Shown: positions 1,041 to 43,362, counted from the first letter of the stretch. The stretch is DNA of 45,828 nt from Candidatus Schekmanbacteria bacterium (GCA_016188575.1 JACPHN010000083.1:1-45828); one strand, 5' to 3'. Notes: generated by a model not told the origin, from the letters alone. Numbers and translations are program-made.

Positions 1041-1078
1041 CTGTTCACCTTCCTCCGCAAGCGGGGGGAGGTGAACAG
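1041..1078. repeat. GC-rich palindromic intergenic element, copy 1 (CTGTTCACCT-TCCTCCGCAAGCGGGGGGAGG-TGAACAG)
   Basis: A 10-bp perfect outer inverted repeat (CTGTTCACCT/AGGTGAACAG) flanks a G/C-run hairpin. The same architecture recurs at five other intergenic sites in the window. Confidence 0.7.
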
Positions 1079-1241
1079 GTACCCCGGATGTCGCACCGCC
1101 TTCAACTTCCGGCAAGTGTAAGCCACATCTTGCCCACGCTTGATTTCTCACCATAAAGCATCGTTGCGGAACGAGTGGGCGGGGGAAGGTCGGGGTGGGG
1201 GGTCTTTGTGATGCGCTTTCCGCGCGCCTGCGGTAGCGCCG

Positions 1242-3352
1242 GTGGTGGATTCGGGTGCTCCAATCATCTCCCTGATTGACCTGGGGTCTCCACCATCTCG
1301 CTCTTGCGTCCGGCGCGCCCGAGCCTTATGTATCCGTCAGCATGTTCCACAAGCCGGTTCGGAGCCCGGCGCGCGCCGCGCGGCTACCTTTTTGCGCGGA
1401 GCAAGACGGGCAATTGGTGTTGGCGTGGATGCAGAGCGGCAGAGGGATGCACTGGAGCTTTCGGTGTGCAGGATCCTGGACGCATACAGGATCCTCACAG
1501 GAGCGCGGGTTGGCTGTCTCGCGATTCTGGCCCCGAGCGAAGAGGGACCCGTTCTCGTCTGGAGCGGAGGTTCGAACCCGGCAGAGCCCTGTGTGGCAAC
1601 AGCCCGAGCGCCCTCAGCAGCACTCGCCGCCGTCCTGGCCGAGGGCAGGACAAGGTACGAAAACGCGCCCCGGCAACAGGATTGGGGCGACTTCTTTCGC
1701 GGCTTGCCCGTGCTACCAGCGAATGTGCTCGTCGCGCCGCTGAAGCTTGACGAGAAATCGCTTGGTTTCGTGGTGCTAGGCGAAAAGCCGCGGCCGTTCG
1801 ATGCCGGCGACATCCGCGCTTGTGAGTCACTTGCTTCTTCCGCCGCGGATGCTTGCCGGAGGGCTCGCCGCGACCTGTCTGCCGTGCGCAGGCTGGGTCT
1901 TGTTCAGCTCGAAGACGAACGCGATCGCCTGACGGCGATACTCGACTGCATCGATCTCCTCGTGTACGTGACCGACATGACGACGGCGGAGATCTTGTTC
2001 GTGAACACGTACGCGCGTCGTGTCTTCGGTAACGTGATCGGCAAGCGGTGCTGGGAGGCACTGCAGGAGGGACAGACCGGGCCGTGTGCTTTCTGCACCA
2101 ATGACAGGCTCCTCGACGCCTCGGGAGCGCCGGCTGGCACGGTGGTGTGGGAGTTTCAAAATACGCGTACGCATCGCTGGTATGAATGCCGGGACCAGGC
2201 CATTCGTTGGGTCGACGGGCGGCTGGTGCGCATGGAGGTCGCGGCGGACATCACCGAGCGCAAGCGGCTGGCAGAGCTGATCGTCGCCGCACAGCGCGAG
2301 GCGAGTATCGCTACCTTGGCAGGTGGTGTCGCTCACGATTTCAACAACATTCTGACCGCGGTCGAGGGATACTCGGAGCTCCTGTTGGAGAAGCTGAAGG
2401 ACGCCCCTGAGCTCCGGCGCCTGCGGTCCGCGAGACCGTTGCGGGGCTTCGTGGCGGGATCGCGCACGCGGTGTCAGTGGATCTGGATCTGCTAACTCCA
2501 TCTCCCGTCGTTTTCGGTGACGGCGTCAGAATTCGGCAAGCGATCGAGGCCGTCCTGCTCAACGCGGTGGAAGCCGTGCAGCGAACCGGTTGGATTCGCA
2601 TCACCACTGGGCTGGACGATCGCCCCGGCGAGCTGCTGGGTGGGGCGCCTTGCGGCCTGCCGGACGGAGCCCGCGTGGCAGTCATCACGATTGAAGACAG
2701 CGGCCCCGGCATGGATGAGAAGACTCTGGCACGGCTATTCGAGCCGTTTTTCACGACCAAATTCGTCGGCAGAGGGCTCGGGCTCGCCGCCGTGAGAGGT
2801 ATCATCAAGGCGCATCATGGAACGATTGACTGCGAATCCTGGCCGGGACGTGGGACACGCATCATAATGCGATTCCCACACCATACGGGTGCAGCTACCG
2901 GGGCGGCCAGGGGCGCGGCGGGCGCACCGAGCAATGTCCTCGTCGTCGGCGCCGATGATGCCGCGCGGGGGCTAGCGGGCCGCGTGCTGAGCCGGATGAA
3001 GCTCAGGCCGCTGTTCGCGCCGAATACCGCGGCGGCTCTGAGCATTCTGCACGAGATGAAGGATGACCTTCGCCTGATCATCGTCGATCTGGAGCTGCCA
3101 GGTGGCGGGGCCGCGATCCTGCTCGACATCGCCGCGGCAATGTCCGCACCTCCGGCGGCTCTCGTCTATACCGCGCTTGACCCCGTCGACGCGGCCGAGA
3201 TCAGTGCGCGACATGCGGGGTTCATTGCCGGCATTGCTCACAAGTCCGCGGGCCTCGCGGATTTCGGCAGGGGAATCGAGACGGCGCTCGAAGCGGGGCG
3301 CGACCGATCACCAGGGGCCGAGAGGCCGCTACAGGCGCTGCAGCAGGCGTAG
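1242..3352 (+). pseudogene. hybrid sensor histidine kinase (GAF-PAS-HisKA-HATPase_c-receiver) interrupted by an apparent 1-nt frameshift near 2420-2440
   Basis: Frame 0 (1242-2495) encodes GAF-like and PAS regions and the H-box 'GVAHDFNNILTAVEGYSELL'. Frame 2 is open from 2411 and encodes the N/G-box ATPase ('IEDSGPGMDEKTLARLFEPFFTTKFVGRGLGLAAV') and a receiver domain (DD pair, 'IIVDLELPG'). The H-box-to-N-box linker is split between the two frames. Confidence 0.6.
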
Positions 3353-3365
3353 CTGGCGTGGCCGG

Positions 3366-5042: not shown

Positions 5043-5059
5043 GCGGACCTCCACGTATG

Positions 5060-6112: not shown

Positions 6113-6170
6113 CTAATGATCCACACACCGAACCTAGTCCGAACGGAAGCTCCATTCAAGCAGGTGGATC

Positions 6171-10973: not shown

Positions 10974-11115
10974 GAGACTGCCCGCCGCCCCTCGCTCAGG
11001 CGCGCCAGCATGAGCCGCGGCCCTGAATCCTGTACCCTCTCGAAGTCGACCCGACGGCGCGCGCCTTGCAGGTGAACCGGCTGTGGACTCGAGTTTTCAG
11101 CGCGGTAGTGCCGGC

Positions 11116-12684: not shown

Positions 12685-12709
12685 CGGCAGCTCCAGTCCC
12701 GCGCTCGGG

Positions 12710-14023: not shown

Positions 14024-14309
14024 GGCTCACCTTTTGTGCGAGAACGAGGTCAGCGTCTCGCGGCCGCGTCCAGAACGGCCGCGCGGCGCCCGCCGGAATC
14101 GGCGCCGTGCTCATAGCACGAAGTGGCGGTTGGCGCCAGCTTCGCCGCGCCGTGAGGCACGTGTCTGGACACATGTCACAGGTATTTCGCCACGGACTTC
14201 GCCGCACCCAGAGCTACACGGTCGCTCCGCAATCCCCCTCGCCAGGTGGCACGTCATTTGCTTTGTAGGAAGAGCATTCGTCATACTGGATCGTCGCCTG
14301 GCCCTGAGG

Positions 14310-15590: not shown

Positions 15591-15726
15591 AATCCAGGCG
15601 CACAGCGGTCAGGATAGGGCTCGCACCAGCACTTCGTCAGCCGGTCCGAAACCCCGACCCGCAAGCCGGGGTCTCAGCCGACACACCAGCGACGCCAGAG
15701 CAGCCAGAACAGAAGGAGGCAGGGTA

Positions 15727-16964: not shown

Positions 16965-17016
16965 CGCCCCCCCGAGCTCGGGTCATCGCCGGGCGCAAGG
17001 TGACACCGCGAGACAC

Positions 17017-17045: not shown

Positions 17046-17051
17046 ATTCCC

Positions 17052-17666: not shown

Positions 17667-17716
17667 CCAGGACGGGGTTTCTTACCGGCTGACGAAGGGA
17701 TGAAAGGATACAGACT

Positions 17717-19165
17717 ATGGCGATGAGAATTCCGGCACGAGGCGCGGGGCAGGAGAGCGTTTTGGGCGCACTTGAGGGATTTCGCGCGGATGATTTGAAG
17801 TGGCGCACGGGCAAGGCATGGGCTTACGTTTTCGACGCTGGGCGCGAGGCGGAGGAGGTATGCAAGAAGGCGTATGCGGCGTATCTGTCCGAGAATGGGC
17901 TAGATCCCACGGCCTTTCCTAGCCTGCTCCGGCTGGAAAACGAGATCGTGGGAATGATGGCATCGCACCTGAACGCTGGGCCGGAGGCGGTCGGCAACTT
18001 CACGAGCGGTGGGACCGAGAGCATCATGCTTGCGGTCAAGTCGGCACGAGACTGGGCGCGTGAAAAGCACCCGGAAATCCGGGAACCCGAGATGATCTTG
18101 CCACACACCAGTCACGCCGCCTTTCAGAAGGCGGGCCACTATCTCGGAGTCCGCGGCGTGCCGGTCGCGGTCGACTCTGAAACGATGCGCGCCGATCCCG
18201 GTGCCGTGCGCGCCGCGATCACCCCCAACACGATTCTCCTGGTGGCATCGGCGACGTCGTACGCGCATGGCGTGATCGATCCCATCGGCGAAATCGCCGC
18301 GCTGGCCGCGGAGCGTGGGCTGCTCTGCCACGTCGATGGCTGCATCGGCGGATTCGTTCTGCCCTATTTCCGCAGGCTCGGAGCGCCCATTCCGGACTTC
18401 GACTTTGCGGTGCGGGGCGTCACCTCGATGTCGATTGACCTGCACAAATACGCATTTGCGGCCAAAGGGGCATCGGTCGTGCTGTATCGCAGCAAGGAGC
18501 TGCGACGCCACCAAATCTATGCGTGCTCGACGTGGACGGGCTACACGATCGTCAATCCGACCGTGCAAAGCACCAAGTCTGGGGGACCGCTGGCCGGCGC
18601 CTGGGCGGTGCTCCACTTCATCGGCGACGACGGGTATCTGGAGCTCTGCCGGCGCATGTTGGAGGCGACGCGGGAGCTGGCGGCGGGGATCGAGCGGATC
18701 GACGGGCTGCGGCTCGCCGCGCAGCCAGATGGTAACCTGCTCGCGTTTGCATCGGATACGGTGAGTGTGTTTCACATTGCAGACGAGATGACTGAGCGCG
18801 GTTGGCACGTGCAGCCCCAGCTCGCCTTCGCGGAGTCGCCCGCGACGATTCATCTGTCGGTAAACCCGAGCAACACGGCGTGGGTGCGGGAATTTCTGGA
18901 GGATCTTCGCGCCAGCGTCGCGGCGGCGCGCCTGTTGCCGCCGAGCCCGCTGGCGGCGATGGCCAAGACGGCGGTGTCGAGCCTCGCCGGCGTCGAGATC
19001 AGCGAGCAGATGATCGAGCAGCTCCTGGCGATGGTTGGGCTCCGAGACCGGGCGCTACCCAAGCGCATGGCGCCCATTCATGAGCTCATGAACGTCATCC
19101 CGCCGGAGCTGCGCAGCAAGGCGCTGATCCATTTCGCAAACGGCCTGTTCACACCGCCCCGCTAG
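17717..19165 (+). CDS. PLP-dependent group II decarboxylase-fold enzyme, sphingosine-1-phosphate lyase-like
   Basis: 'SGGTESIMLAVKSARDWAR' and the PLP-lysine motif 'SMSIDLHKYAFAAKGASVVLYR'. The latter resembles the SPL signature (S.S.D.HKYG.APKG.S..LY) more than glutamate decarboxylase. Confidence 0.7.
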   Translation: MAMRIPARGAGQESVLGALEGFRADDLKWRTGKAWAYVFDAGREAEEVCKKAYAAYLSENGLDPTAFPSLLRLENEIVGMMASHLNAGPEAVGNFTSGGTESIMLAVKSARDWAREKHPEIREPEMILPHTSHAAFQKAGHYLGVRGVPVAVDSETMRADPGAVRAAITPNTILLVASATSYAHGVIDPIGEIAALAAERGLLCHVDGCIGGFVLPYFRRLGAPIPDFDFAVRGVTSMSIDLHKYAFAAKGASVVLYRSKELRRHQIYACSTWTGYTIVNPTVQSTKSGGPLAGAWAVLHFIGDDGYLELCRRMLEATRELAAGIERIDGLRLAAQPDGNLLAFASDTVSVFHIADEMTERGWHVQPQLAFAESPATIHLSVNPSNTAWVREFLEDLRASVAAARLLPPSPLAAMAKTAVSSLAGVEISEQMIEQLLAMVGLRDRALPKRMAPIHELMNVIPPELRSKALIHFANGLFTPPR

Positions 19166-21938
19166 CGCGGCGCTCGCGCCAGGCGCCAAATGCCGCGAAA
19201 CCGCTGACCGCCAGGCTCACCGCCGCAGTCCAGGCAAGCTGAGCCGGAGTCACTGGTGCAAGCCGGAAGCTGGCCGCCAGTGGTGGGACAAATGTCAACA
19301 GCAGCGGGAGGGATACTGACGCGGCTACGACCGCCAGAAGCAGGCGCGTGTGGGCGAGGACCGGAAATCGCGGGGAGCGGTGAGCCGGGGGCCGAAGAAA
19401 GACGACGCCTGCTTGCGTCCAGCTCAGAGTGATGAGAGCAATCGCGGCTAGCTGAGGGCCATGAGCGCTGCGGCTCCACGGCGCCAGGGCCACCGTGACG
19501 GCGAAGAGCAGCCCCGCGCTTTTCCGGAGAACGGTGGAAATGAACGAGCTGTGGCGCAGACGTTCCGGGCCCGGGCGACGCCGGGTGTGCGCGGGCGGCT
19601 GCACTTCGTCGCCGAGGAGTGCCAGGCCGGGAAGCGCCGAGGAGATCAGCGCGAGCCAGATGATGTGTAGCGGGGAAAGCCGAGGGAAAAGCGGGACCAG
19701 GGGCCCGAGCGCAAGAAGGATCAGCAGTGCCACCGCCGAAGACAGCAGGTGCTGCTCGCTACGCCATCGGGCGGCGGCGCTGGCCTGAGCGATGGCCAAG
19801 GCGGCGCCGAGGGAACCGATCGAGTCGTCCAACAGCACGACGTCGGCGACCTGCCGGGCCGCATCGGTGCCGGTAGTGCCGAGCGCCACGGAGACCGGAG
19901 CGGCGGCGAGCACCGGGCGATCGGCGAGTGCACCGGAGATCACGGCCACAACCTCTCCCCGTTGCCGGAGCTGTTCGAGGATGAGGTGCTTGTGGCGCGG
20001 CTCCATGCGGGCATAGACGGCATGCGCGGCGGCCTGCTCTGGTTCGCACCCCAGGTCCGGTCCAGCGTCGAGCTGCCCTCCGGTGGTCACGGTGCCCGTC
20101 TCCCCAGGATCGCGCGCCAGCGCATCGACTGCGAGCGCGGTCCCGGGGTGCTCGCCGGTCACCAGGATCACGTCCACACCGAGGTCGGAAAGTTCGGTGA
20201 CCGCGCGCGGAGCGTCAGGTCGAGGCGGGTCCGACAGCGCGATCAGCCCGACGAAGATCAGGTCGCCGTCGGTGATATCGACGCCCGTGGGAGGAGCTGA
20301 CGTGAGAATCCTGCAGCCGACAGCGATCACTCTGAGCCCCTCCGCGGCGAACCGGTCAGCAGCAGCGAGTGAACGGACGCGCAGATCGGGGGTCATGATC
20401 TCGACGCCATGACTACCAACGGCGCTGGAGGAGAGCGAGATCAGCGTCTCGGCGGCGCCCTTGCTCAGGGCCAGCCAGTGAGTCTCGGGCCGCGGCGGCG
20501 TGCCATTCCACAACCCACGCAACCAGTGAGCCGCCGGCGGGCGGCTCAGCACTCCCCGATGGATGGTGGTAGCGCGCCGCCTGGACGCCCGCAATGGGAT
20601 CTCGGATACTCTGGGAAACACTTCTTCCAATGTCGACTTCGACAGGCCGATCCGCGCTGCCGCCTCGATGAGCGCGAGATCCGTCGGATCGCCTATGGCT
20701 TGTGCGCGATCGGAGTGAGGTCCGACGCGGCTGAGGACGGCGTCGTTGCACAGCGCCGCGCCAGCAAAGAGCAGGCGGACGAGGGGATCGGGGCTTCCGG
20801 AATCCTGGCGAGTTGCCTCGCCCTCATCGTCGCCAGCAGGCTTGTGGCCTCGCAAAGTCTCCATCGTCACGACCTTGCCGCCGAGGTATGCTGCCGCCAC
20901 AGAAAGCCTCGCCTGCGTCAGCACTCCCGTCATTGGCACGCAGACCGCCGTGACGGCGGCGAGACGTTCGAGCGCGCCGCCGTCCCGGAGCACGACGTGC
21001 CGTCGCAGCAGGCGCCGCGTCGCAATCAGGTTTGACAGGGACGACAGGTACGAGAGCGGCAACGGAATCAGGGTTGCTGCGAGGCCGAAGAGGCGATCGG
21101 TGTCCGCGCTGGAGAAGCCAGGCCACAGTCTCTCGGCGAGCAGCGTCGCGGCGATCGCCAGGCACGCCGCGGTGGCGCCCGCCCGCACGAGCAGCTCAGG
21201 GCGCAACGACGGCCGGAGGAGCTCGACACCGGGATCGCATCGCGGGATTTCCTGGGCGACCTGGCCACGACCAGGTGAAACGCAGACGGCTTCCGCCCAG
21301 CCGGAGAGCACGACGTGACCGCAAGGTATGAGGCTGTCGCTGCCCGGCGTGAAGACGGCAGCGGGGTCGCCGTCGGCCTCATCTTGGGTGGGGGGAGCCG
21401 GAGCCGCGGCCGGCGGCGGGACGAGGCGCAGCCCCACGTGCGAGACGATCCGACAGTCCGCGGGGATGACGCTTCCTGAGACGAGCAGGATGATGTCTCC
21501 AGGCACAAGCTCGCGCGCCGCCACCCTTCGGACCTTGCCGGCGCGCCGCAGCATGGCGGCTGGATCTACCAGAGGGCGCACGGCCGCCCTCGTCCTGGCG
21601 TCCAGGCGATAGCTGACGGCCGCTGCGCCCTGGGCCAGAAGGATCACCGACGCCATCATGTACCCCGTGAGCGTGTCGCCCCGCAACGCGCAGGCGAATG
21701 CGATGGCGAAGAGTGACAGAACTTCAGGGCCCAGCCCCCACCCGGCGGCCAGCGCGGAAAGCCGCGCAGCGCTCAGAATCCCCGATACCCGCTTGGAGCG
21801 TCGTTGCTTTCGCGCGCGAGCCTGCTCCTCGGAGAGGCCAGTAGCGGGATCCGCGCCCAGACTCGTGAGGAGGTCCTGCAGAGCCGGGGTGGTCGTGGTG
21901 GGCTCGGGTCTAGCGTCGCTCAATATCGCTCCAATCAC
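19149..21938 (-). CDS. P-type ATPase homologue (type II, Cation_ATPase_N) with degenerate catalytic motifs - probable pseudo-ATPase
   Basis: Overall P-type ATPase architecture is present (N-terminal 'LSEEQARARK', conserved 'KGAAETL' in the N domain, 10 TM-like segments). However DKTGTLT is replaced by 'PMTGVLT' (phospho-Asp lost), TGDN by 'TGEH', GDGVNDAP by 'SGALADRP', and the TGES and PEGL regions are not recognisable. Confidence 0.7.
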   Translation of the reverse strand: MIGAILSDARPEPTTTTPALQDLLTSLGADPATGLSEEQARARKQRRSKRVSGILSAARLSALAAGWGLGPEVLSLFAIAFACALRGDTLTGYMMASVILLAQGAAAVSYRLDARTRAAVRPLVDPAAMLRRAGKVRRVAARELVPGDIILLVSGSVIPADCRIVSHVGLRLVPPPAAAPAPPTQDEADGDPAAVFTPGSDSLIPCGHVVLSGWAEAVCVSPGRGQVAQEIPRCDPGVELLRPSLRPELLVRAGATAACLAIAATLLAERLWPGFSSADTDRLFGLAATLIPLPLSYLSSLSNLIATRRLLRRHVVLRDGGALERLAAVTAVCVPMTGVLTQARLSVAAAYLGGKVVTMETLRGHKPAGDDEGEATRQDSGSPDPLVRLLFAGAALCNDAVLSRVGPHSDRAQAIGDPTDLALIEAAARIGLSKSTLEEVFPRVSEIPLRASRRRATTIHRGVLSRPPAAHWLRGLWNGTPPRPETHWLALSKGAAETLISLSSSAVGSHGVEIMTPDLRVRSLAAADRFAAEGLRVIAVGCRILTSAPPTGVDITDGDLIFVGLIALSDPPRPDAPRAVTELSDLGVDVILVTGEHPGTALAVDALARDPGETGTVTTGGQLDAGPDLGCEPEQAAAHAVYARMEPRHKHLILEQLRQRGEVVAVISGALADRPVLAAAPVSVALGTTGTDAARQVADVVLLDDSIGSLGAALAIAQASAAARWRSEQHLLSSAVALLILLALGPLVPLFPRLSPLHIIWLALISSALPGLALLGDEVQPPAHTRRRPGPERLRHSSFISTVLRKSAGLLFAVTVALAPWSRSAHGPQLAAIALITLSWTQAGVVFLRPPAHRSPRFPVLAHTRLLLAVVAASVSLPLLLTFVPPLAASFRLAPVTPAQLAWTAAVSLAVSGFAAFGAWRERRASGAV

Positions 21939-23446: not shown

Positions 23447-25525
23447 ATGATCGGCGGTGCGTCCATCATGAGCGGTCGACATGGGAAAGGGGTGCTTTGC
23501 ATGAACAGCGCGGCGGGAACCGGTGTCGATGGCCGTGTCGGGACGGCGCCGTCTTGCCGCACTCCGCGGCAAAACCTGTGCGCCAGTGGACTGGGCACGG
23601 CGCTCGTCAGCCTCGCCGTCCTTTGCGCCGTCTGCGCGGTCACTCGCCTGGCGCCCGCCAGCGCCGTTGAGCCTTTTTTTGCTCCCGCCGTGCCGATGGG
23701 GACGCTTGCGATCCGGCTCCAACCGACCGCCGCCGTCGCGCCTGGAGCCCCGGTCCTGATTACCTTCGGAGTGCCATTCCCACGCGGTTCGCTCACGGCC
23801 GAAGCGATTGGCACGGTGCGCGTCCTGGCGGCTGGCGAGGAGCGCCCCGCCCATGTCGACGCGCTCACGCTCTGGCGCCACGCCACCAATGCGGCGGTCG
23901 ACGGCGCTTCGATCCGGGTCATCCGGGTCCAGCTCGAGCACGCGTTCGCGACGAGCTACCCCGCCTCCGAGGAGATCTCGCTCGAGTGGGGCCAGGCCCC
24001 ACGGACCAAGGACGTTGCGGAGCTCGCGGATCCCCGCACCGCCTGGCACCTCGTCACCGACGGCACGACCCCCTCCGGCGGCATCACGTTCGACGCCAGC
24101 CACCAGGTTTGGGAGCCCGACGTTTACGCCGTGCTCCCCAAGGCGTGGCTCTCCGCTAGCGGCCTCAAGACCCCGATGCAGCCGCTAGACGGCGGCGTCA
24201 GCGAGCTGCGCATGGAGCCCTCGGCCGCCGCCGCTTCCTACCCCGGCCATCTCGAGGCCGACCATGCTCAGGTCAACTTCTTCTACTCGATTATCAATGA
24301 CGACGACCTCCTCGTCGGGCCGGTCGATTATGACAATACCAATGCGTTCACCAGCGATTACGAACCGTGGCTCTACGATCGCGCGATGGCACTGTACGTG
24401 GGCTACCTGCGGAGCGGATTCTTCCGGTTCTTGCGCGAGGCCGTCCGCAACGCCGAGTTCTATCGAACGAAGATCTACACGCCTGCGGCGTGCGATGACG
24501 GGCCCTGTGTCGGCAGCTTCTCGATGAAGAATCCCGATCCGGCGGCGGGCTGGCATGACGAAAAATACTCCTACAACGAATCTCTTGCCATGACGTACTG
24601 GCTCACCGGCGACGCCGCCGCCCTGCCGTACGTCGAGTACGTGACGCGGATCTACGACGGGGTGTCCACGGTGGCCTCCTCCAGTGCTTTTACCGAGCGG
24701 CACGCGGGGCTCAAGTTGATGTCCCGCGTCGTTGCCTACGAGGTTACCGGCGGGGAGCAATATAGAGATGAGATGGCGCAGATCATCGCGGATTTCCGAG
24801 CCGGGCAGACCAACCCGTACGGTGGCCTCGCCGACGGCGGGCTGTGGCACTCGATCGCGGCGCACGAAGGGGTCGAATCGACGGAGCCGATTACCTCACC
24901 TTGGATGTCGGCCCTGATCGGCGACGCGGCGGCTCGGGCGTATCTGGTGAGCGAGCACGTGGACGCCGCGCGGCTCATCATCGAGCTCGCGACTCACCAG
25001 TGCGGCGCTGGCGGGTACTGGACGACGATTCGTGACGGTGAGAATGGGCTAGACGAACAAAGCGGTGAAGCTCCGCTGTTCTTCCCTCACTACCTGGCAA
25101 CGCGAGACGGGCTCGGCTGGAGCGACGACTTCAACCCCTATACCGATTACGAACATTCCTTCGACGTGGCGGGCACGGTCGCCTGGGGGACGTACTTCGC
25201 GCGGTTGAGCGGCGAGGCACAGGCGAGTGAGCAGCTTCGGACGTGTGCGGAGGACCTCTATACGACCTTCAGCCACACGATCACCTACTGGACCCGACCC
25301 GGTGGGCCGGCCGCGAACAAGGACGGATTCCGGGTCGTACCCCACCGCAAGTACTCGTGGTGGTTCAAGAACGCCAGCGGTTTTCAGTGGGCGATGGCGA
25401 GCTCGGAGGGGCCGGCGGTCCCGATCGCCTACCCATTTGCCGCAAGCGTCGTCCTGGGCCTGACGGTGTGTCGGCGTCGCGGTGGGGTGGCCGGCCGCCG
25501 GTCGGCGAGTGGCGGCGACCGCTGA
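23447..25525 (+). CDS. large hypothetical secreted protein with C-terminal hydrophobic anchor plus Arg-rich tail
   Basis: N-terminal signal 'LGTALVSLAVLCAVCAVTRLAPASA'. The C-terminus '...VPIAYPFAASVVLGLTVCRRRGG...' resembles a C-terminal sorting/anchor signal (TM helix followed by RRR). The start is uncertain (candidate Mets at 23447, 23468 and 23501). Confidence 0.5.
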   Translation: MIGGASIMSGRHGKGVLCMNSAAGTGVDGRVGTAPSCRTPRQNLCASGLGTALVSLAVLCAVCAVTRLAPASAVEPFFAPAVPMGTLAIRLQPTAAVAPGAPVLITFGVPFPRGSLTAEAIGTVRVLAAGEERPAHVDALTLWRHATNAAVDGASIRVIRVQLEHAFATSYPASEEISLEWGQAPRTKDVAELADPRTAWHLVTDGTTPSGGITFDASHQVWEPDVYAVLPKAWLSASGLKTPMQPLDGGVSELRMEPSAAAASYPGHLEADHAQVNFFYSIINDDDLLVGPVDYDNTNAFTSDYEPWLYDRAMALYVGYLRSGFFRFLREAVRNAEFYRTKIYTPAACDDGPCVGSFSMKNPDPAAGWHDEKYSYNESLAMTYWLTGDAAALPYVEYVTRIYDGVSTVASSSAFTERHAGLKLMSRVVAYEVTGGEQYRDEMAQIIADFRAGQTNPYGGLADGGLWHSIAAHEGVESTEPITSPWMSALIGDAAARAYLVSEHVDAARLIIELATHQCGAGGYWTTIRDGENGLDEQSGEAPLFFPHYLATRDGLGWSDDFNPYTDYEHSFDVAGTVAWGTYFARLSGEAQASEQLRTCAEDLYTTFSHTITYWTRPGGPAANKDGFRVVPHRKYSWWFKNASGFQWAMASSEGPAVPIAYPFAASVVLGLTVCRRRGGVAGRRSASGGDR

Positions 25526-25604
25526 GCGGGTCGGCGCGCAGGCGCAGCCGGCCGCTGCCGTACAGCGAAAAGGCATCGCGTCGCTCCTGGCTCGCCGCGT
25601 GAAA

Positions 25605-25643
25605 CTGTTCACCTCTGCCCCGCACGCGGGGGGGAGGTGAACA
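25605..25643. repeat. GC-rich palindromic intergenic element, copy 2 (CTGTTCACCTCTGCCCCGCACGCGGGGGGGAGGTGAACAG)
   Basis: Same outer CTGTTCACCT/AGGTGAACAG inverted repeat and G-run hairpin as copy 1. It sits between two convergent gene ends. Confidence 0.7.
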
Positions 25644-25649
25644 GCTACG

Positions 25650-27356
25650 TCACGGCTGTGGGGCGCCACCGCCTCCATGCCGGCGGCGCCGGCGTGGAGC
25701 CGTGATCTCCAGCGTCTTGATCCGGCTGACGAGCCCCGTACGCGGCACGCCGAGGCGCTCGGCGGCCCACGTGACATTGCCGCCGCACTCGCCGATTGCC
25801 TGTTCGATCAGGCCGCGTTCATTGTCGTCCAGGCGCGCTCTGGCATCCTGCAGCGATCTCCACGAAGCGGCGACGTCGAGCGCGCCCGCGGCAGGTGCCG
25901 GAGACTCGCTCACCGCCTCGGCGCGGTCCTGGTCCGCGTCCGTGCTTTCCACCAGGCCGGTGAAGTGCCGGGGTTCAAGCAACCGGTCTTGCTGATCTTC
26001 GCGCAGACACCGGGCAACGGCGGTGTCGAGCGCTTTCTGCAGGGAGCGGAAGTTGCCCGGCCACATCAGCTCGGGCCCGGCGAGGAAGCGTCGAAGTGCC
26101 GGAGAAAGTGACCACGAGGCTTCCGTGCCGCGGCTCCGCAGATAGCGTTCTGCCAGCGCGGGGACATCCTCGCGTCGCTCGCGCAGCGACGGGAGCCGCA
26201 CGACCACCCCGCTGATGCGATCGTAGAGATCCTGGCGCAGCACCCGATCGCGCACCGCCTGCGCCACGTCGCCATTGGTGGCGGCGATGATGCGGACATC
26301 CGAGCGACACGGAACCGGCCGGTTCCAGCCGAGCGGTTCGTAGGTGCCGTCCTGCAAGAAATCGAGGAGCAGCGGTTGAATCTGTATGGGCAAGTTCAGG
26401 ATCTCGTCGAAAAAGATCGTTCCGCCCTGAGCCAGCGCCACCTTTCCGGGGCGATCGCTCGCGGCACCGGTGAAGGAGCCTTTGACGTGTCCGAACAGCT
26501 CGCTGCGAACCGTGTTCAGATCATCTCCGTGGCCGAGGTTGACGCGCACGAATGGCGTGGCGCGGTGGCTCGCGCGGCCGATGGCTCGCGCTAGCAGGGT
26601 CTTTCCGGTGCCAGGCTCGCCCGCGATAAAAATCGGGATGTCCGTCTGGACGACCGGCATGAGCGTGCGGCGAATGGCTGCCATCGAGCTCGGCGCCAGG
26701 GCATCGGCGAGGGACGTGCTGGAAAACGAGCCAGCCTCGCCTTCGGTGCCTTCCGTGGCGAGGGCAGAAGCGGTGGCGGCGCGGCCATGCCTGCGGATTT
26801 GTTCGTGATGCGTGATGACCAGGGAGAGAATGTCACAGGCGGTCTCGAACAACTCCAGGTCGCGCTCGCGTATTTCGCGATCAGCCGAGCGCAGGTCGAT
26901 GTAGGCGACGCCGCGCACCTGTGCCTTCGGTGCGTCGTCGCCGGGTGCGGCGGCCACGCCCGCGTCGCTCCGACGCACCAGGAACAAGGGCCCCGCAAGC
27001 GCATCGGTTATGCCAAATTCCGAATAGCTCCCCGATGGCATCCGCCGGTCGTGAAGGTCGTGGACGATCTGGCCGGTATCCAGAACGCGCTGGACGATGG
27101 TTCGGCTCACCTGTGCCTGCTCGAGCTGGGTGAGACGTCGGCGCAGCCTTCTTCCATGCACCGGGACGGGCACACCATCGTCGCCGATATAGTAGAGCAC
27201 ACCGCGGTCGGCGCCCGTGGCGTCGACCAGTAGATCCAGACACTCGGCGAGCACGGCGTCGAGATCGAGTATCCGCACGACCTGCCGGGTGAACTCGCGC
27301 AGTGCTGCCCAGGGGCCCTCCAAGTCGGAATCGTCCAGTCTAAGCAGTCCATCCAT
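25650..27356 (-). CDS. sigma-54-dependent transcriptional activator (GAF - AAA+ sigma-54 interaction - Fis-type HTH)
   Basis: Walker A 'GEPGTGKTLLARAIG', an 'ELFGHVKGSFTGA' (GAFTGA-like) loop, and C-terminal HTH 'GGNVTWAAERLGVPRTGLVSRIK'. Start set at the internal 'MDGLLRLDD' Met because upstream codons of the 698-aa ORF are low-complexity. The coordinate is ±1-2 nt. Confidence 0.8.
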   Translation of the reverse strand: MDGLLRLDDSDLEGPWAALREFTRQVVRILDLDAVLAECLDLLVDATGADRGVLYYIGDDGVPVPVHGRRLRRRLTQLEQAQVSRTIVQRVLDTGQIVHDLHDRRMPSGSYSEFGITDALAGPLFLVRRSDAGVAAAPGDDAPKAQVRGVAYIDLRSADREIRERDLELFETACDILSLVITHHEQIRRHGRAATASALATEGTEGEAGSFSSTSLADALAPSSMAAIRRTLMPVVQTDIPIFIAGEPGTGKTLLARAIGRASHRATPFVRVNLGHGDDLNTVRSELFGHVKGSFTGAASDRPGKVALAQGGTIFFDEILNLPIQIQPLLLDFLQDGTYEPLGWNRPVPCRSDVRIIAATNGDVAQAVRDRVLRQDLYDRISGVVVRLPSLRERREDVPALAERYLRSRGTEASWSLSPALRRFLAGPELMWPGNFRSLQKALDTAVARCLREDQQDRLLEPRHFTGLVESTDADQDRAEAVSESPAPAAGALDVAASWRSLQDARARLDDNERGLIEQAIGECGGNVTWAAERLGVPRTGLVSRIKTLEITAPRRRRRHGGGGAPQP

Positions 27357-27463
27357 AGCCGCAACGCTACTACGGTCGCCTGACCGCGTCAATGTTTGGC
27401 CAGCCCGCGAGCGGGCGGAGGAACGGCATACGCGCTCGGAAAAGACGGATGCCGCTTGCTGTC

Positions 27464-27493
27464 CCGCCTCCCCCCGCTTGCGGGGGAGGGGCG
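27464..27493. repeat. GC-rich palindromic element, copy 3 (core only: CCGCCTCCCCCCGCTTGCGGGGGAGGGGCGGG)
   Basis: Shares the CCTCCCCCCGCTTGCGGGGG core and lacks the TGAACAG flanks. Confidence 0.55.
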
Positions 27494-27712
27494 GGCGGCG
27501 GCGGGCTCGCCGTTCTTCCCCTCTCCCAGTCTCCGCCCAGTGAGCGGAGGATGGTCTTGCGCGTTGCCACTGCTCATCCGGGCGCTTGTCGGAAGGGACG
27601 GGGGGACGCTGTCGCGTCGACGTCGAACAGGCGGAGAATTCAGGAAGCCGCCAGGGGTTGCATTCGGCTTGCAACCTTGCTACAGTAAGTGGCCGACTTG
27701 CATCGCTGACTT

Positions 27713-27786
27713 CGGGGCGTGGCGCAGCTTGGTAGCGCACTAGCATGGGGGGCTAGGGGTCGTGGGTTCGAATCCCGCCGCCCCGA
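27713..27786 (+). tRNA. tRNA-Pro (anticodon GGG)
   Basis: Manual fold gives a 7-bp acceptor stem (CGGGGCG/CGCCCCG), U8, D-arm GCGC/GCGC with a GG loop, a 5-bp anticodon stem CTAGC/GCTAG with loop A-T-GGG-G-G, a 5-nt variable loop, T-arm GTGGG-TTCGAAT-CCCGC and discriminator A. No encoded CCA. Confidence 0.85.
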
Positions 27787-27797
27787 CTCAGGAAAAG

Positions 27798-27829
27798 GCC
27801 GTAACGGTGAACGTTACGGCGTTTTTTTT
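27798..27829 (+). terminator. rho-independent terminator (GCCGTAACG-GTGAA-CGTTACGGC followed by T8)
   Basis: A perfect 9-bp stem, 5-nt loop and a run of eight T directly downstream of the tRNA. Confidence 0.85.
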
Positions 27830-36831: not shown

Positions 36832-38514
36832 ATGGAAATCGGCTCGTCGACCTCGCTCTCCCCAACCATTCCCGACACCTCGGCAACCGGCACGAGCGAC
36901 ACCGCCACCGGCGGAGCGGCCAAGGAGGCCAGTCAGACGGCCTCCTCAGCCGCCGCCGGCGAGGTGCAAGAGACCCCTGATGCGGAGCCTGTTGCCGGCG
37001 ACGAACCCGCCGTCGAGCCAGTTGACTCGTACTCGACCGAGGCAGTCGGCGTCTGGGATCGCCTGACGGGTACCGCCTCCGCCGGCGAGGCCGGCGAACG
37101 TGGTGAAGCCGATTCGTCCCTTTCCGACGTCATCTCCCGCCTGCGGCAGAGCCCCCCGGCGCCCTCCCCGCTCGCCGCGCCCGCCAGCGACTCCGATCTC
37201 ATCTCGGCCAACGTCCTGCCGCCCGCCTCCCGCAACTACGGAGACCTCGTGCAATCGGTGGTCGGCGCTGACACTCAAGCCGCTGCGCTCGGACCGGACG
37301 GCATCATCAAGTCGCACGAAAACTGGGGAGGGCTGAACCTCAAGGAGGAAGAGCTCGGTCAGGACCTGGCGAAGCGCCTGAAGGGAGATCCCGCGGGCCA
37401 GTCCGGGACCGCTACCGGAGTGCTCGACAAGCTGGACAAGGGCGACGCCAGCCAGGTCAGCCACGAGATGTACAAGAACATGTCGAAGGAGGAGATGGTC
37501 AAGCTCGCGAGGACCGAACCAGGCCGAACCGCCCTTACCAAGATGAAGGACAAGCTCGACCCCTCGGACAAGGAGCAAGATGCGGCGGCTGTCGAGATCA
37601 AGAAGGCCATCGACGAAGGCAGGGCGCGCGAGGAGGAGGCCAAGGACCTGACGCCACCCGAGCTCAAGCCCGGAAAATCACACCACGAGCAGACCAAGGA
37701 CGGAGCCACCGTAGGCACCTTCTACACCAAGCCGAACGTCACCCAGATGCCTCTGGACAAATTCAAGACCGGCTCTGTCGAGGAAGCCAAGAAGCAAATC
37801 GATGACACCAAGGCCAAGCAGGAGGCCTTCTGCGCAGACATGCGCGCCAAGCTCGGCGACAACGTCGATGTCAAGAATCCACCCAGCCTCGACCACGTCA
37901 AGCAGTATATGCAGAAGGTCGCCGATGAAGGGGGGACCGACAAGGTCAGGGAGAAACACGGCGAGTACCTGAGCACCTTCTACGCCCATTCAGGCGAGGG
38001 CGTAACTTGGGGCGCCGGCAGGAAGCTCGCGGAAAGCGATCAGCTCAAAGCCGGTCTGCAGGGGCAGCCGACCCTCAAAGACGGTCGCAAGGTGATCGAC
38101 TGCGAGGGTTACTCAGCGCTGACCGAGAATATCCTGGGCGGTCTGAAGGACAAGCGTAACAAGAACCAGCCGATGTTCGACATCACACACGCATCGACAT
38201 CGAACCATATCATTACGGGCGTGTTTCCGCGCGACAAGAATGCAGGCCAACCGTTTTTCGTGAACAACAATGTTCCCAGTGAGATTACAAGAGAGGACTA
38301 CGCGGCGGCGGCGGGCTATGCGAAGAAGCAGGGCCGGGGCAAGCCCTCGCAGGACGACATCATGCGTGCGGTGGCGATTCGGGGCGCCCGCGAGCGCAAG
38401 GACATCGAACCGACCGCGGAAACGCCGGTCCAAACAGCAGGACGGATGTCGGGGATGACGGAGAGTCCAAAGACAGTAAAGAAGCTCCTCGAGGAGTTGC
38501 AAATTCCCGAATAA
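36832..38514 (+). CDS. hypothetical acidic Lys/Glu-rich protein with disordered S/T/A/G-rich N-terminus and C-terminal Cys/His module (possible papain-like/transglutaminase-like fold)
   Basis: GGAGG Shine-Dalgarno site 6 nt upstream and no signal peptide. The composition is unusual for this genome. The C-terminal 'IDCEGYSALTENILGG' ... 'FDITHASTSNHIITGVF' gives a Cys...His spacing of about 45 aa, reminiscent of NlpC/P60 or transglutaminase-like cores. Confidence 0.5.
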   Translation: MEIGSSTSLSPTIPDTSATGTSDTATGGAAKEASQTASSAAAGEVQETPDAEPVAGDEPAVEPVDSYSTEAVGVWDRLTGTASAGEAGERGEADSSLSDVISRLRQSPPAPSPLAAPASDSDLISANVLPPASRNYGDLVQSVVGADTQAAALGPDGIIKSHENWGGLNLKEEELGQDLAKRLKGDPAGQSGTATGVLDKLDKGDASQVSHEMYKNMSKEEMVKLARTEPGRTALTKMKDKLDPSDKEQDAAAVEIKKAIDEGRAREEEAKDLTPPELKPGKSHHEQTKDGATVGTFYTKPNVTQMPLDKFKTGSVEEAKKQIDDTKAKQEAFCADMRAKLGDNVDVKNPPSLDHVKQYMQKVADEGGTDKVREKHGEYLSTFYAHSGEGVTWGAGRKLAESDQLKAGLQGQPTLKDGRKVIDCEGYSALTENILGGLKDKRNKNQPMFDITHASTSNHIITGVFPRDKNAGQPFFVNNNVPSEITREDYAAAAGYAKKQGRGKPSQDDIMRAVAIRGARERKDIEPTAETPVQTAGRMSGMTESPKTVKKLLEELQIPE

Positions 38515-38528
38515 CCCGGCTCCGTATC

Positions 38529-38580
38529 TGTTCACCCCCTCCCCCCACTTTCGGAGGGAGGGTCGGGGCGGGGCGGGGGG
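38529..38580. repeat. GC-rich palindromic intergenic element, copy 5 (CTGTTCACCCCCTCCCCCCACTTTCGGAGGGAGGGTCGGGGCGGGGCGGGGGG)
   Basis: Has the left CTGTTCAC flank and a C-run/G-run hairpin. It sits between convergent gene ends. Confidence 0.6.
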
Positions 38581-38587
38581 AGAAAGA

Positions 38588-39619
38588 CTACCTGGTAGCA
38601 CGAGCCTCGCAGGGGCGCGAGGTCGCATCGCTCTCCGCCTCCCAAAACGCCCGCTGAATCACATACATCGAGGCGTTCAGCGCGACTCTCAACAGGAGCT
38701 CCTCGTCCTCTGGCAAGGCGAACCGGCGCCCGAGACAATGCACGAAAATTTCACCTGGAGCGGCGGTCCTGTCGGCAATCCGCTTTGCCAGTGCAAACAA
38801 CTCCATGGCGGCCGGTTCCTGCGCGCGTAATCGGGCCAGCGCGGCAGCGGCGTTGTGAGGGGTCGCATTCGCAGCCCCACCGGGGTAAAACAGCGGATCG
38901 CAGTGCTTGCGCGCGAGCCGCCGCATCGCGCGTCCCCACATTTCCCACCGCCGCCACCAGTCGTCGAAGTTGTGAGCGTGGTCGTGCCAGGCGCGAGCTT
39001 GCCGCGTCGCCTCCAGCACGATGCCCCGGCGGTGCATCAGCCGATACCCCAGGTCCAGGTCTTCACCTGCGGGCTCCGGAAAAGACGGGTCGAACCCGCC
39101 AACCGCGCGCACGTCCGCGGCGGGCACGCTGAGATTTCCCGTGCAAAACGCGAGGGGGCCGAGCGGTACGCCCGGGGGGACAGTCGCGGTCCCGAATATG
39201 CCGATCTCGGTGGCGATGCGATTCAGCGGGGTGGCCATCACCGCGGGCGCGAAGTCGAAGGTGCCAAGCAGCGCGGTCGGGCGGCGGAAACACGCATGGA
39301 GCTGGAGGTGTGTGGACACCACGTCGCGCGCAAGGCGCACGTCGTCATTGAGAAATAGGATCAGCGGCGCCTGGACCAGATCGAGGGCGCGATTGCGCGC
39401 CGCGGCCGGGCCGGCCTGCGCTGCCGCCGTGACGAAAACCCGCAAGCTGCCGCGGCAAGCATCCGCGACGAGCGCGGCCGGCGGGGCCGAGCCGTCGTCT
39501 GTGACGATTACCTCGAAGCTCTCGGCCGACTCCTGCCGGGACAGGTCGCCGAGGAGGTTGGCAAGCTGTAGCGGGCGATTGTGTGTCGCAATCACCACCG
39601 AGATGCGCGGAGCGATCAT
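38588..39619 (-). CDS. family 2 glycosyltransferase
   Basis: N-terminal 'ISVVIATHNRPLQLANLLGDLSRQ...FEVIVTDDGS' is the GT2 (GT-A, DxD) signature. Confidence 0.8.
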   Translation of the reverse strand: MIAPRISVVIATHNRPLQLANLLGDLSRQESAESFEVIVTDDGSAPPAALVADACRGSLRVFVTAAAQAGPAAARNRALDLVQAPLILFLNDDVRLARDVVSTHLQLHACFRRPTALLGTFDFAPAVMATPLNRIATEIGIFGTATVPPGVPLGPLAFCTGNLSVPAADVRAVGGFDPSFPEPAGEDLDLGYRLMHRRGIVLEATRQARAWHDHAHNFDDWWRRWEMWGRAMRRLARKHCDPLFYPGGAANATPHNAAAALARLRAQEPAAMELFALAKRIADRTAAPGEIFVHCLGRRFALPEDEELLLRVALNASMYVIQRAFWEAESDATSRPCEARATR

Positions 39620-40218: not shown

Positions 40219-40253
40219 GGCGATCTCTCATTCGCCGTCAGGTCGCCGGTCAG

Positions 40254-41462: not shown

Positions 41463-41484
41463 GCAAATGCCTCCTGATTTGAGT

Positions 41485-43050
41485 TTACCAGAGTTTGAAC
41501 GCGTCCACGACGCTGTCGATGACGCTCGCAGCGCCGGCAGCGATCGTGTCGGCCGTAGTCTCGATGGCGTTGGCCGCGGACTGCACCGCTCCCGCCACTC
41601 CTTGCGCCAGGTTGCCGGCATCGCGGACGGCGGCACCGGGGTCGAGCGCGTACTCGAGACCCTTGCCGGCGAGGTCCAGCGCCCCGCCGATAGCGGCGTT
41701 GGCAATGGCCTTGACGTCCACCTCGACACCCCAGCCCGCGCCGAACCCGTAGCCTACGGCGGCGCCACCACCGAAACCGAACGAAATTTTGCCGTCGTCG
41801 TAGCCGAGGTGCACGCCGCCTTCCGCGCCGGCACCGGCCCAGGCACCCGCGTGTCCCGACAAGGTGACGAAGTCGCCGATACCTACCTGCCCTTCGGCCT
41901 CCGCTTTCACACCGGCAAACGCGGTTCCATAGATATCCGCCCCGGCGCGCGGTGGGTTGATCGTGGCGTTGACCTCGGCGTGGCCTTCGGCGAGCGCCGA
42001 AGCCTCGACGCGCACCTTGCCGCTGCCGTTGATATCGAGGCGCTCGCCGCCGATTTCGACGCCTGCCGTGCGAAAGTCAGCTCCCGCCTCCGCGGACGCG
42101 GAGACACCCACGCGCGCGTCTGCTCGCGCACGCAGCCCCGTGGCGTCCAGCGTGGCGCTTCCGGTCGCGTCGCCGAACGCTTCAACACCGGCATTCGCGT
42201 AGTAGTTGGCGGTGCCCAGCGCATTCTCCAACCGCCCCTGGGTGGATACCATCGCCGCCGCACTGGCGCCGACTTGCCCCTGAGCGTTGAGCCCGGTTGC
42301 ATCCAGACTGACGCTGCCCTCGCCGCCATAGCGCAGGTCGGCGCGCGCCTCGGACGTGTTCGTGGCTGTTCCGAGAACCGTTTCCAGACGACTGTCCGAG
42401 CGCGCCGAGGCGCCGAGCGTCCCCTGGAACCGCCCCTCTGCCTCTGCTCCCGCAATGCCGATCTTGGCCCGGCCGTCGGCCTCGAAGTCGCCGCCCACGC
42501 GCGTCTGGGTCTGGTTGTCGAAGGTGCCGAAGTCGCCAATCTGGCGATGAAGCTGATACGCGCGGTAGTCTCCAAAATGGCTCTGCGTGGACCCACGCGT
42601 CTCGGCCCGCAGCCCTGTCTGTTGCTCGAGTGCCTCGAGACTCTTGTCGACGCCCCCGAGGACACCCTGGATTGCCTCCGTGGGCGCGCCGAGGATCATG
42701 TTCTGAACCGTATCCACGGGATTGTCGCGCAATCCCTGAGCGATCGCTGCCAGATCCTGCTGGAGCGCCGCCGGATCGAATTCGGCGTTGCCGAGAAACG
42801 CCGAAAAGTCCGGTGGCTGGCCGGAAGCGACCGAGGTCAGTAGATGCTGAATACCACCAAACGGGTGGCTGCCTAGATCCTGAAAAAGATCGATGATGGC
42901 GGACCCGGCGCGCGTCGTTGCGGCGCGCATTTCGCGGTCCTTGTCGGTCGCCGGGTCGTGTATTTGCGCTTCGCGGGTGCCCTGCGCCTGCCACGCCTGA
43001 GCGTACTGCTGCGAGGTGTGGTCACCCCACGAAATCGTTCCGTTGGACAT
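41485..43050 (-). CDS. hypothetical Gly/Ala-rich repeat protein ending in an aromatic residue (...DAFKLW)
   Basis: Start at 'MSNGTISWGD' with a GGAGG Shine-Dalgarno site. The central region has ~40-aa degenerate repeats ('SVSLDATGLNAQGQVGASAAA' / 'SATLDATGLRARADARVGVSASAEAG') with an alternating G/A/V pattern. No signal peptide. Confidence 0.5.
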   Translation of the reverse strand: MSNGTISWGDHTSQQYAQAWQAQGTREAQIHDPATDKDREMRAATTRAGSAIIDLFQDLGSHPFGGIQHLLTSVASGQPPDFSAFLGNAEFDPAALQQDLAAIAQGLRDNPVDTVQNMILGAPTEAIQGVLGGVDKSLEALEQQTGLRAETRGSTQSHFGDYRAYQLHRQIGDFGTFDNQTQTRVGGDFEADGRAKIGIAGAEAEGRFQGTLGASARSDSRLETVLGTATNTSEARADLRYGGEGSVSLDATGLNAQGQVGASAAAMVSTQGRLENALGTANYYANAGVEAFGDATGSATLDATGLRARADARVGVSASAEAGADFRTAGVEIGGERLDINGSGKVRVEASALAEGHAEVNATINPPRAGADIYGTAFAGVKAEAEGQVGIGDFVTLSGHAGAWAGAGAEGGVHLGYDDGKISFGFGGGAAVGYGFGAGWGVEVDVKAIANAAIGGALDLAGKGLEYALDPGAAVRDAGNLAQGVAGAVQSAANAIETTADTIAAGAASVIDSVVDAFKLW

Positions 43051-43317
43051 CTCTACCTCCACCCAGATCGAACGGTGTCGGGTTTCTTCGGTGCTCGTAA
43101 CAATCGTATAGGGGATTGTTGCCCATGGCAAGGTTATCGCGTGTTACCGCGAAATCGTTTCTCAACGGCTCACCGGGTGCTTGACAGGGCCGGCTCGGGC
43201 TGCGGTGTAGTCGAACCAGCGCTGCTGCGATCGATGAAACGCCAAGGTGGCAGCACCGGCCTGAATCCACCGCCTGGTCGAGTGCAGGCTGCGCGGAATG
43301 CGCATCACGAAGACCCT

Positions 43318-43362
43318 CCACCTCACCTCTTCCCGCATGCGGGGGGAGGGACGGAGGGGGCC
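43318..43362. repeat. GC-rich palindromic intergenic element, copy 6 (CCTCTTCCCGCATGCGGGGGGAGGGACGGAGGGGG)
   Basis: Shares the CCCGC-xTGC-GGGGGGAGG core. It lies in the divergent intergenic region. Confidence 0.55.

Follow-up and report, generated by a model that had tools for sequence, protein, structure and literature searches.

Six G+C-rich palindromes in 46 kb of bacterial DNA may represent a lineage-specific family of repetitive extragenic palindromes

We analyzed a 45,828-nucleotide stretch of DNA labeled Candidatus Schekmanbacteria bacterium (GCA_016188575.1, JACPHN010000083.1:1-45828), referred to here as the window, with a GC content of 66%. Its genes are interspersed with six palindromic sites, named c1 to c6. 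A sequence-only reading had described them as a family of intergenic hairpins, and all six sequences (6/6) were present where it had placed them, with only minor shifts of coordinates: the hairpins of c2, c4 and c6 run from 25605 to 25644, from 30869 to 30908 and from 43314 to 43358, the stem of c3 spans 27456-27501, and c5 starts at 38528 (at 38524 with its GTAT foot). The sites are listed below. RNA folding energies are given for the plus and the minus strand, in this order, and scores in bits come from a covariance model trained on c1, c2 and c4 only (the leave-out model).

c1, 1037-1082, no strand assigned: near-full copy; hairpin 1041-1078 (CTGTTCACC...GGTGAACAG), feet GCAA and GTAC; RNA -31.9 / -26.3 kcal/mol; 68 bits; in a 1.24-kb stretch without coding signal, 164 nt upstream of a GAF/PAS histidine-kinase open reading frame (ORF) (1242).
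c2, 25601-25648, no strand assigned: near-full copy; hairpin 25605-25644, feet GAAA and GTAG; RNA -34.2 / -32.0 kcal/mol; 64 bits; convergent, 79 nt past the stop of 23447-25525 (+) and 1 nt past the TGA of a sigma-54 activator gene (25650-27356, -).
c3, 27456-27501, no strand assigned: core-only site; core 27464-27493, CTGTTCACC/GGTGAACAG swapped for CTGTCCCGCC/GGCGGGCGG with pairing kept; RNA -38.5 / -30.0 kcal/mol; 24.5 bits; divergent, with the sigma-54 activator start (about 27356, -) 108 nt away and a tRNA-Pro gene (27713, +) 220 nt away, c3 being upstream of both.
c4, 30866-30912, no strand assigned: near-full copy; hairpin 30869-30908, exact 24-nt core CCTCCCCCCGCTTGCGGGGGGAGG at 30878-30901, right foot GGTGAACAG-TTAC intact, left foot decayed by transitions and a 2-nt insertion (CTATCCACT); RNA -23.4 / -29.4 kcal/mol; 62 bits; tandem, 78 nt past the stop of an M20 peptidase gene (29250-30788, +) and about 240 nt ahead of the next plus-strand gene (31152).
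c5, 38524-38581, plus strand: half copy; GTAT-CTGTTCACC foot, diverged core CCTCCCCCCAC-TTTC-GGAGGGAGG, G-rich tail replacing the second foot; RNA -32.0 kcal/mol, z only -0.8; core 18.2 bits; occupies a 73-nt convergent spacer, 9 nt past the TAA of 36832-38514 (+) and 7 nt from the stop of 38588-39619 (-).
c6, 43314-43362, no strand assigned: core-only site (CCTCTTCCCGC-AT-GCGGGGGGAGG) with a G-rich tail and no feet; RNA -31.3 / -28.2 kcal/mol; 24.5 bits; divergent, between 41485-43050 (-) and a PD40 lipoprotein-like gene (ORF from 43392, +).
Possible relic, 19145-19182, plus strand: CTGTTCAC, then 22/28 matches to the consensus left arm and loop (counted by hand).

Real genes were separated from mechanical ORFs by codon-position GC, Pfam matches, the gene calls on matching Logan contigs and a tRNA search. 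Once the gene map had been corrected, all six sites were extragenic, as claimed from the sequence, and the ORFs overlying c1, c3 and c6 were judged not to be genes. The region 1-1241, which holds c1, had no coding signal in any frame and no Rfam match. The region also has a G-rich stretch at 1177-1202 (GGGCGGGGGAAGGTCGGGGTGGGGGG), similar to the tails of c5 and of the alphaproteobacterial hairpins. The 698-amino-acid ORF over c3 extends too far: the most probable start of the sigma-54 activator is at about 27356 (MDGLLRLDD...), and translation upstream of this point gives Arg/Pro-rich junk. To the right of c3 lie tRNA-Pro(GGG) at 27713-27787 (+) and then the start of an OTCase gene at 28094. 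Since the activator starts at about 27356 and the tRNA is on the plus strand, c3 lies between two divergent starts. Non-coding DNA accounts for about 4.7 of the 45.8 kb (about 10%), and by our calculation the presence of six out of six sites within it has a p of about 1e-6.

The contexts of the sites were mixed. Two are convergent (c2, c5), one is tandem (c4), two are divergent with facing 5' ends (c3, c6), and c1 lies in a long non-coding region; the polarity of the copies relative to the genes varied as well. A location between convergent gene ends, which had been proposed for several copies, was found for c2 and c5 and not for the other four. The distances to stop codons were +1, +9, +78 and +79 nt (c2, c4, c5), and three of the six sites were away from gene termini. 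Most gene ends in the window, for example the convergent spacer 10974-11115, had no copy. As a proxy for repetitiveness, the Logan contigs were uninformative: one stops 5 nt ahead of c6, and another spans both c2 and c3. Beyond the window they gave no extension, as all that was recovered were short pieces of this same locus.

The frequency of the sequences was then compared with that in dinucleotide shuffles. The 24-mer core with up to 3 mismatches was found at 5 sites (0.00 expected); c2, which has an indel, was missed. There were 7 occurrences of GGGGGGAGG (0.63 expected), all 7 within the six sites, and 7 of CTGTTCAC (0.94 expected), 6 within the elements and 1 at 19145-19182. A covariance model of all six sites, run on both strands with filters off, scored them at 41-61 bits; the next best match in the window had 15.7 bits, no coding-region match exceeded this value, and the scan found no seventh copy in the window. 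The measured density was 1 per 7.6 kb, in agreement with the value of about 1 per 7.5 kb given before. The sites are 1.8-24 kb apart with ordinary genes between them, the closest pair being c2 and c3 at 1.8 kb. The core proposed in the sequence-only reading recurs as a type in all six sites, and in its exact form in c4 only. The additional CTGTTCAC is located where the convergent genes 17717-19165 (+) and 19149-21938 (-) overlap at their ends, and was picked up by neither covariance model; possibly it is what remains of a copy that the coding ends have absorbed.

Alignment of the feet showed that the unit is longer than described before. A 46-nt palindrome, GTAN-CTGTTCACC-TCCCCCCGC-NN-GCGGGGGGA-GGTGAACAG-NTAC, is present almost in full in c1, c2 and c4. 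By halves, the consensus reads GTAN-CTGTTCACCTCCCCCCGC-NN-GCGGGGGGAGGTGAACAG-NTAC (about 46 nt), the full form being GTAACTGTTCACCTCCCCCCGC-NN-GCGGGGGGAGGTGAACAGTTAC. c1 and c2 are nearly complete, with the layout CTGTTCACC-(C/T-rich arm)-GC-NN-GC-(G-rich arm)-GGTGAACAG. All six CTGTTCACC feet were preceded by G-N-A-N (GTAC, GTAG, GTAA, GTAT, GCAA, GAAA), four of them by GTA-N; this motif, variable at its fourth base, flanks the palindrome on either side. Beyond it the flanks share nothing, so the copies are not segmental duplications. The whole unit is a single palindrome of 38-46 nt with a 2-4-nt center and stems of 10-18 bp containing 0-3 mismatches. Over 46-49 nt, non-G/C feet included, the mean column identity of c1, c2 and c4 was 79%. 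Read from the GTA-N side, the first arm was perfect in these three copies and every substitution or indel was in the second; the differences between copies thus consisted of transitions and small indels in one arm. c5 has an exact 9-nt foot in common with c1, c2 and c4, with GTA ahead of it.

Because the six-site model had been trained on all six sites, the leave-out model was built from c1, c2 and c4. With it, c3 and c6 (24.5 bits) and the core of c5 (18.2 bits) gave in each case a core-only alignment. Hairpins of unrelated bacteria scored 21-31 bits, level with c3, c5 and c6. They included two on a metagenome contig with recA (L019; 30.7 and 26.6 bits), which we take from its RecA N terminus to be alphaproteobacterial, and those on the Chelatococcus plasmid pCO-6 (21.7-23.8 bits). 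A BLAST search of plasmids with the consensus found the core between genes in Azospirillum, Sinorhizobium, Rhizobium and Methylobacterium, and also in CRISPR repeats of Klebsiella plasmids. Since foreign hairpins score as high, the C6GC-NN-GCG6 core is a generic hairpin type, and the feet define the family. c1, c2 and c4 form a firm family, which c5 joins by virtue of its GTAT-CTGTTCACC foot. The sites c3 and c6 may descend from old copies that have diverged heavily, or may belong to a second family with this kind of hairpin. The hairpins of Chelatococcus sp. CO-6 pCO-6 (55216-55358; L043 1497-1639) and of L019 (7996-8167) are intergenic, with a core CCCCTCCCCCCGCTTGCGGCGGGGAGGGG and a G-rich tail. 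Both loci have two copies about 100 nt apart, and the Chelatococcus pair is inverted, a REPIN-like arrangement not seen in the window.

The elements had been expected to form very stable hairpins, and this was borne out. RNA folding gave -23 to -38 kcal/mol over the six sites, with z scores of -3.9 to -7.0 for c1, c2 and c4; c5 and c6, which are monotonous in G/C, reached only -0.8 to -2.3. As single-stranded DNA (ssDNA), the sites folded with -12.6 to -18 kcal/mol overall and with -12.6 to -17.3 kcal/mol (z -3.8 to -6.2) for c1, c2 and c4. In the model structure 91% of the cells were paired and 4 pairs had changes on both sides, a result reached by only 10-12 of 500 shuffles; this support is modest, and the alignment had been fitted to the structure. 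The outer stem of c3 was kept through three double changes (TTCAC/GTGAA to CCCGC/GCGGG). RNA from the plus strand was more stable at five of the six sites, and c4, which has a clear context, showed the opposite. G.U asymmetry was therefore discarded as an indicator of the functional strand. A G-quadruplex reading of the G-rich tails was also rejected because G4 motifs were not enriched (7 in the window, about 12 in shuffles).

We also looked for the family elsewhere. The 18-nt half-site GCGGGGGGAGGTGAACAG had 12 singleton matches in 185,579 species genomes and 26 in metagenome contigs, two collections that do not contain the source metagenome-assembled genome (MAG), the one with protein MBI2568015.1 on a 52,967-bp contig that has also been assembled from SRR12113422. 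The matches came from unrelated taxa, and since nearly all of them were without a palindromic partner, they are at chance level; the footed family is multi-copy in no other sampled genome. The closest homologues of the M20 peptidase had about 65% amino-acid identity, and at the orthologous loci of these nearest relatives (L041, L042) the neighbors differed and no element was present. No Rfam family matched any of the six sites, the sole real match in the window being tRNA-Pro, and viral contigs had no match to the core. Consensus read-through ORFs in any open frame, searched against 5.8 billion proteins, returned one weak match (E 1.6, 39% identity), which amounts to nothing.

A canonical intrinsic terminator has a U-tract of 7-9 nt directly behind its hairpin. 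In the elements such a tract was said to be lacking, and indeed neither strand has a T-run after any of the copies. Terminator scans of 1-40000, a range with c1 to c5, recovered none of these five. The sole convincing canonical terminator in these 40 kb lies directly after tRNA-Pro at 27793-27825 (hairpin 27798-27820 followed by GTTTTTTTT; an A-tract, a 9-bp stem and a T8 run), and the other terminator-like matches were at about the shuffle expectation. This terminator, which shows the organism to be capable of forming a canonical one, is bidirectional by symmetry, and one Logan contig begins within the tRNA. The suggestion of a bidirectional terminator or 3' stabilizer agrees with the positions of c2, c4 and c5, 1-79 nt past stops, and not with those of c3 and c6 between divergent gene starts. 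Since the copies have no U-tract, a canonical terminator is nearby and most gene ends have no copy, the elements are probably not dedicated intrinsic terminators of the organism, and self-sufficient intrinsic termination at them is unlikely.

The window thus contains a repeat family that is restricted to extragenic DNA and has sharp boundaries, hairpin potential and mixed contexts. Among the options considered in the sequence-only reading, REP-like is the best fit to these features and to the unrelated flanks, the solitary copies, both polarities and the decay. The other half of its "REP/MITE-like" label did not hold. A miniature inverted-repeat transposable element (MITE) measures 50-500 bp, has an internal segment bounded by terminal inverted repeats and comes with target-site duplications, whereas the unit here is one palindrome of 38-46 nt without evident flanking direct duplication. 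We consider it about an even chance (roughly 0.5) that the elements are REP-type repetitive extragenic palindromes and form a lineage-specific family. Mixed contexts and variable polarity are as expected for insertions tolerated wherever they are harmless. The copies can be arranged in a decay series, from the nearly intact c1 and c2 through c4, with one foot lost, to c5, where the foot of one arm and some of the core are gone. Differences by transition and small indel within one arm fit decay after insertion. The family is lineage-specific, as is usual for REP families. Pseudomonas fluorescens SBW25 has a genome about 6.7 Mb in size. It carries 1,053 extragenic REP 16-mers (PMC3116915), and the density in the window is similar, of the order reported for REPs. 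The REP, BIME and REPIN elements of Escherichia coli, Pseudomonas and Stenotrophomonas are likewise imperfect palindromes of 20-40 nt or more, extragenic and species-specific in sequence, present at about one per 6-8 kb, with conserved foot nucleotides, hairpins in both ssDNA and RNA, and decaying singlets (PMC3116915, PMC3479197). The kind of element is therefore already known and ordinary; what is new is the sequence version.

From these features we infer mobility. A palindromic unit would be copied into non-coding DNA and would decay there afterwards, and the likeness of the copies would reflect descent by copying, not a requirement for the exact sequence. The copying would act on hairpin ssDNA, as RAYT/HUH transposases do. 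In mRNA 3' ends, the G+C-rich hairpins of c2, c4 and c5 (10-18 bp) would most likely be a barrier to 3'-to-5' exonucleases and also make RNA polymerase pause or obstruct it. At convergent pairs, such a barrier would serve both strands.

Several observations weigh against assignment to the REP type. No REPIN/BIME doublets, in which two inverted REPs lie a fixed short distance apart, were found in the window, each copy being solitary and at least 1.8 kb from the next, and there were no mosaic clusters. The G-N-A-N of the foot is two-sided and is not clearly the invariant one-sided GTAG guide of E. coli REPs (PMC3479197). In addition, binding of TnpA-REP to the E. coli REP requires a bulge from an internal mismatch (PMC3479197), whereas the stems in the window are nearly perfect. 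No RAYT/IS200-like gene (Y1_Tnp) was found among the 32 window ORFs compared with Pfam, a search of 46 kb only; since RAYTs, whose genes REPs typically flank, are usually single-copy, this says little. All three firm copies with a determinable context (c2, c4, c5) are downstream of a stop codon, a pattern that a selected 3'-end signal would produce just as well. The sites in divergent contexts, c3 and c6, are exactly the weakest family members. REPs reach tens to hundreds of copies across a genome. Six sites in a single 46-kb window are a small sample, and the failure to find read-through proteins among 5.8 billion is weak evidence on abundance.

The positions of c2, c4 and c5 at 1, 78 and 9 nt past stop codons, with c2 and c5 serving convergent pairs, raise the possibility of sequence-conserved, factor-dependent bidirectional terminators or 3'-processing signals. 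A protein would then recognize the CTGTTCACC/GGTGAACAG foot and the G/C core, and would stop transcription or set mRNA 3' ends on both strands. With canonical terminators at about the shuffle level over 40 kb, the protein-coding genes there have no obvious alternative, and the conservation of the foot and left arm goes beyond what hairpin stability needs. A precedent is the mycobacterial TRIT, a palindromic hairpin conserved in sequence and structure, non-classical, mostly bidirectional and located at gene ends (PMC3152330). The likeness considered here is one of description, and TRIT has been reported in Mycobacterium only. TRIT also occupies a narrow window at about -8 from stop codons (PMC3152330), whereas here the distances are anywhere between +1 and +79 nt and three sites out of six are off gene ends: the starts on either side of c3 and of c6 are divergent, and c1 is not preceded by a recognizable gene. 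Most window gene ends, the spacer 10974-11115 included, manage without a copy, and the sense RNA of c4 forms the weaker hairpin (-23.4 vs -29.4 kcal/mol). Furthermore, mycobacterial RNA polymerase did not terminate in vitro at hairpins lacking U-tracts, even with NusA and NusG (PMC3993855). We regard TRIT-like signals as possible but rather unlikely, and factor-defined 3' ends at convergent genes are not favored by the present evidence. In a broader form of this idea, which we consider doubtful, the feet and the perfect left arm would make up a recognition hairpin for a dedicated protein, acting either as a TRIT-like terminator or 3'-processing signal or as the substrate of a HUH/RAYT-like or Cas6-like nuclease co-opted for mRNA ends.

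Recognition could instead take place on duplex DNA, the elements being operators of a global regulator, sites of a nucleoid-associated protein or inverted pairs of a DNA uptake sequence. The feet do form a conserved inverted repeat, AACTGTTCACC ... GGTGAACAGTT, with both halves present in c1 and c2, and c3 and c6 are in divergent promoter regions. However, these two are the copies without feet, c2 and c5 are at gene ends with nothing to regulate, and between the half-sites there are 20-22 nt of G/C hairpin, with a variable spacing (38 vs 40 nt). To our knowledge, such spacing is unlike that of known dimeric operators. Readings of the feet as a sigma-54 promoter, an enhancer-binding site or a LexA box were rejected by inspection, as the spacing was wrong and GG/GC elements were missing. 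The inverted pairs of uptake sequences (DUS/USS) that act as terminators in Neisseriaceae and Pasteurellaceae are conserved short sequences in close inverted repeat downstream of genes; neisserial ones are often paired in this way (PMC2397512). DUS pairs form canonical Rho-independent terminators, whereas the window elements have no U-tract, and uptake sequences are also abundant singly inside genes, with about 1 per 1.1-1.5 kb across coding DNA (PMC2397512). CTGTTCAC, with 6 of its 7 occurrences inside elements, is not spread in this way, and an uptake sequence was rejected. The option of a protein-binding site in the sequence-only reading found no support and was not refuted; recognition on duplex DNA as a whole appears very unlikely. 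The least credible explanation in our view is that there is no family by descent, and that the sites are solo CRISPR-like repeats or hairpins that evolved independently with a generic C6GC-NN-GCG6 stem. The core stem is the same as that of Klebsiella plasmid CRISPR repeats, e.g., GTATTCCCCCGCTTGCGGGGGTTATCGG, and of alphaproteobacterial intergenic hairpins (pCO-6, an Azospirillum plasmid and L019), and foreign hairpins match c3, c5 and c6 in the leave-out test. CRISPR repeats of types I-E and IV have the stem CCCCGC-NNNN-GCGGGG with a 4-nt loop, GCTTGC and GCATGC variants included (PMC8847753). Unlike the window elements, they are not full palindromes with feet. A CRISPR array was excluded, as the copies are 1.8-24 kb apart, with neither direct repeats at 30-40-nt spacers nor a cas domain among the 32 window ORFs scanned. 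The 79% identity of c1, c2 and c4, feet included, and the exact 9-nt foot of c5 after GTA also speak against independent origins. Rhizobial and alphaproteobacterial palindromes (RIMEs, Sm-repeats, AB/C) are similar in being intergenic and conserved in sequence and structure, with function unknown (PMC2573895). The Chelatococcus, Azospirillum and L019 hairpins, which are not assigned to the RIME or Sm families, have a CCTCCCCCCGC-TT-GCGGGGGGAGG-type core and in some cases a G-rich tail as in c3, c5 and c6. They come from unrelated organisms and have no CTGTTCACC/GGTGAACAG feet, and the likeness, limited to a low-complexity G/C stem, may be convergent.

If the MAG contains hundreds of copies, the elements would constitute a REP-type family with its own sequence signature for an uncultured, poorly sampled lineage. 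They mark gene boundaries, so that ORFs called too long, as over c1, c3 and c6, can be corrected. They can also upset assembly and coverage, and could be a strain-typing marker. How GC-rich bacteria with few canonical terminators end transcription is an open question. If hairpins without a U-tract were to set convergent 3' ends together with a specific factor, this would bear on transcription ending in GC-rich bacteria, and recognition by a dedicated protein, if true, would provide a tractable example of sequence-specific termination without a U-tract.

Other features of the window are of separate interest. The NCBI label, Candidatus Schekmanbacteria, is doubtful in view of the 66% GC of the window, as the named genomes of Schekmanbacteria have 38 or 48 as part of the name, and of the best homologues: the nearest named ones, at about 63-65% identity, come from MAGs of Myxococcales and Vicinamibacteria. 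A strong hairpin outside the family, with a GCTTGC loop, lies at 15638-15687 between two plus-strand genes. It is stable as minus-strand RNA only (-33.5 kcal/mol, with many G.U pairs), the plus fold being weak (ssDNA -7.5 vs -12.7 kcal/mol), and could be an antisense or independent small RNA. The histidine kinase at 1242-3352 (+) extends over two frames, with GAF/PAS/HisKA at 1242-2495 and HATPase_c at 2471-3352 and a 25-nt overlap, which reflects a frameshift, a pseudogene or an assembly error. The ORF at 44659-45717 (+) combines a weak S30AE/HPF-like N-terminal match with a C-terminal sigma-70 region 4, an unusual combination. Finally, 34192-36714 (+) encodes an 840-amino-acid protein with Pfam MVP_shoulder (E 7e-30) and Vault_3 domains, i.e., a bacterial MAG here carries a gene of the major-vault-protein type; the sole identical protein that turned up is on a Logan contig of the same sample.

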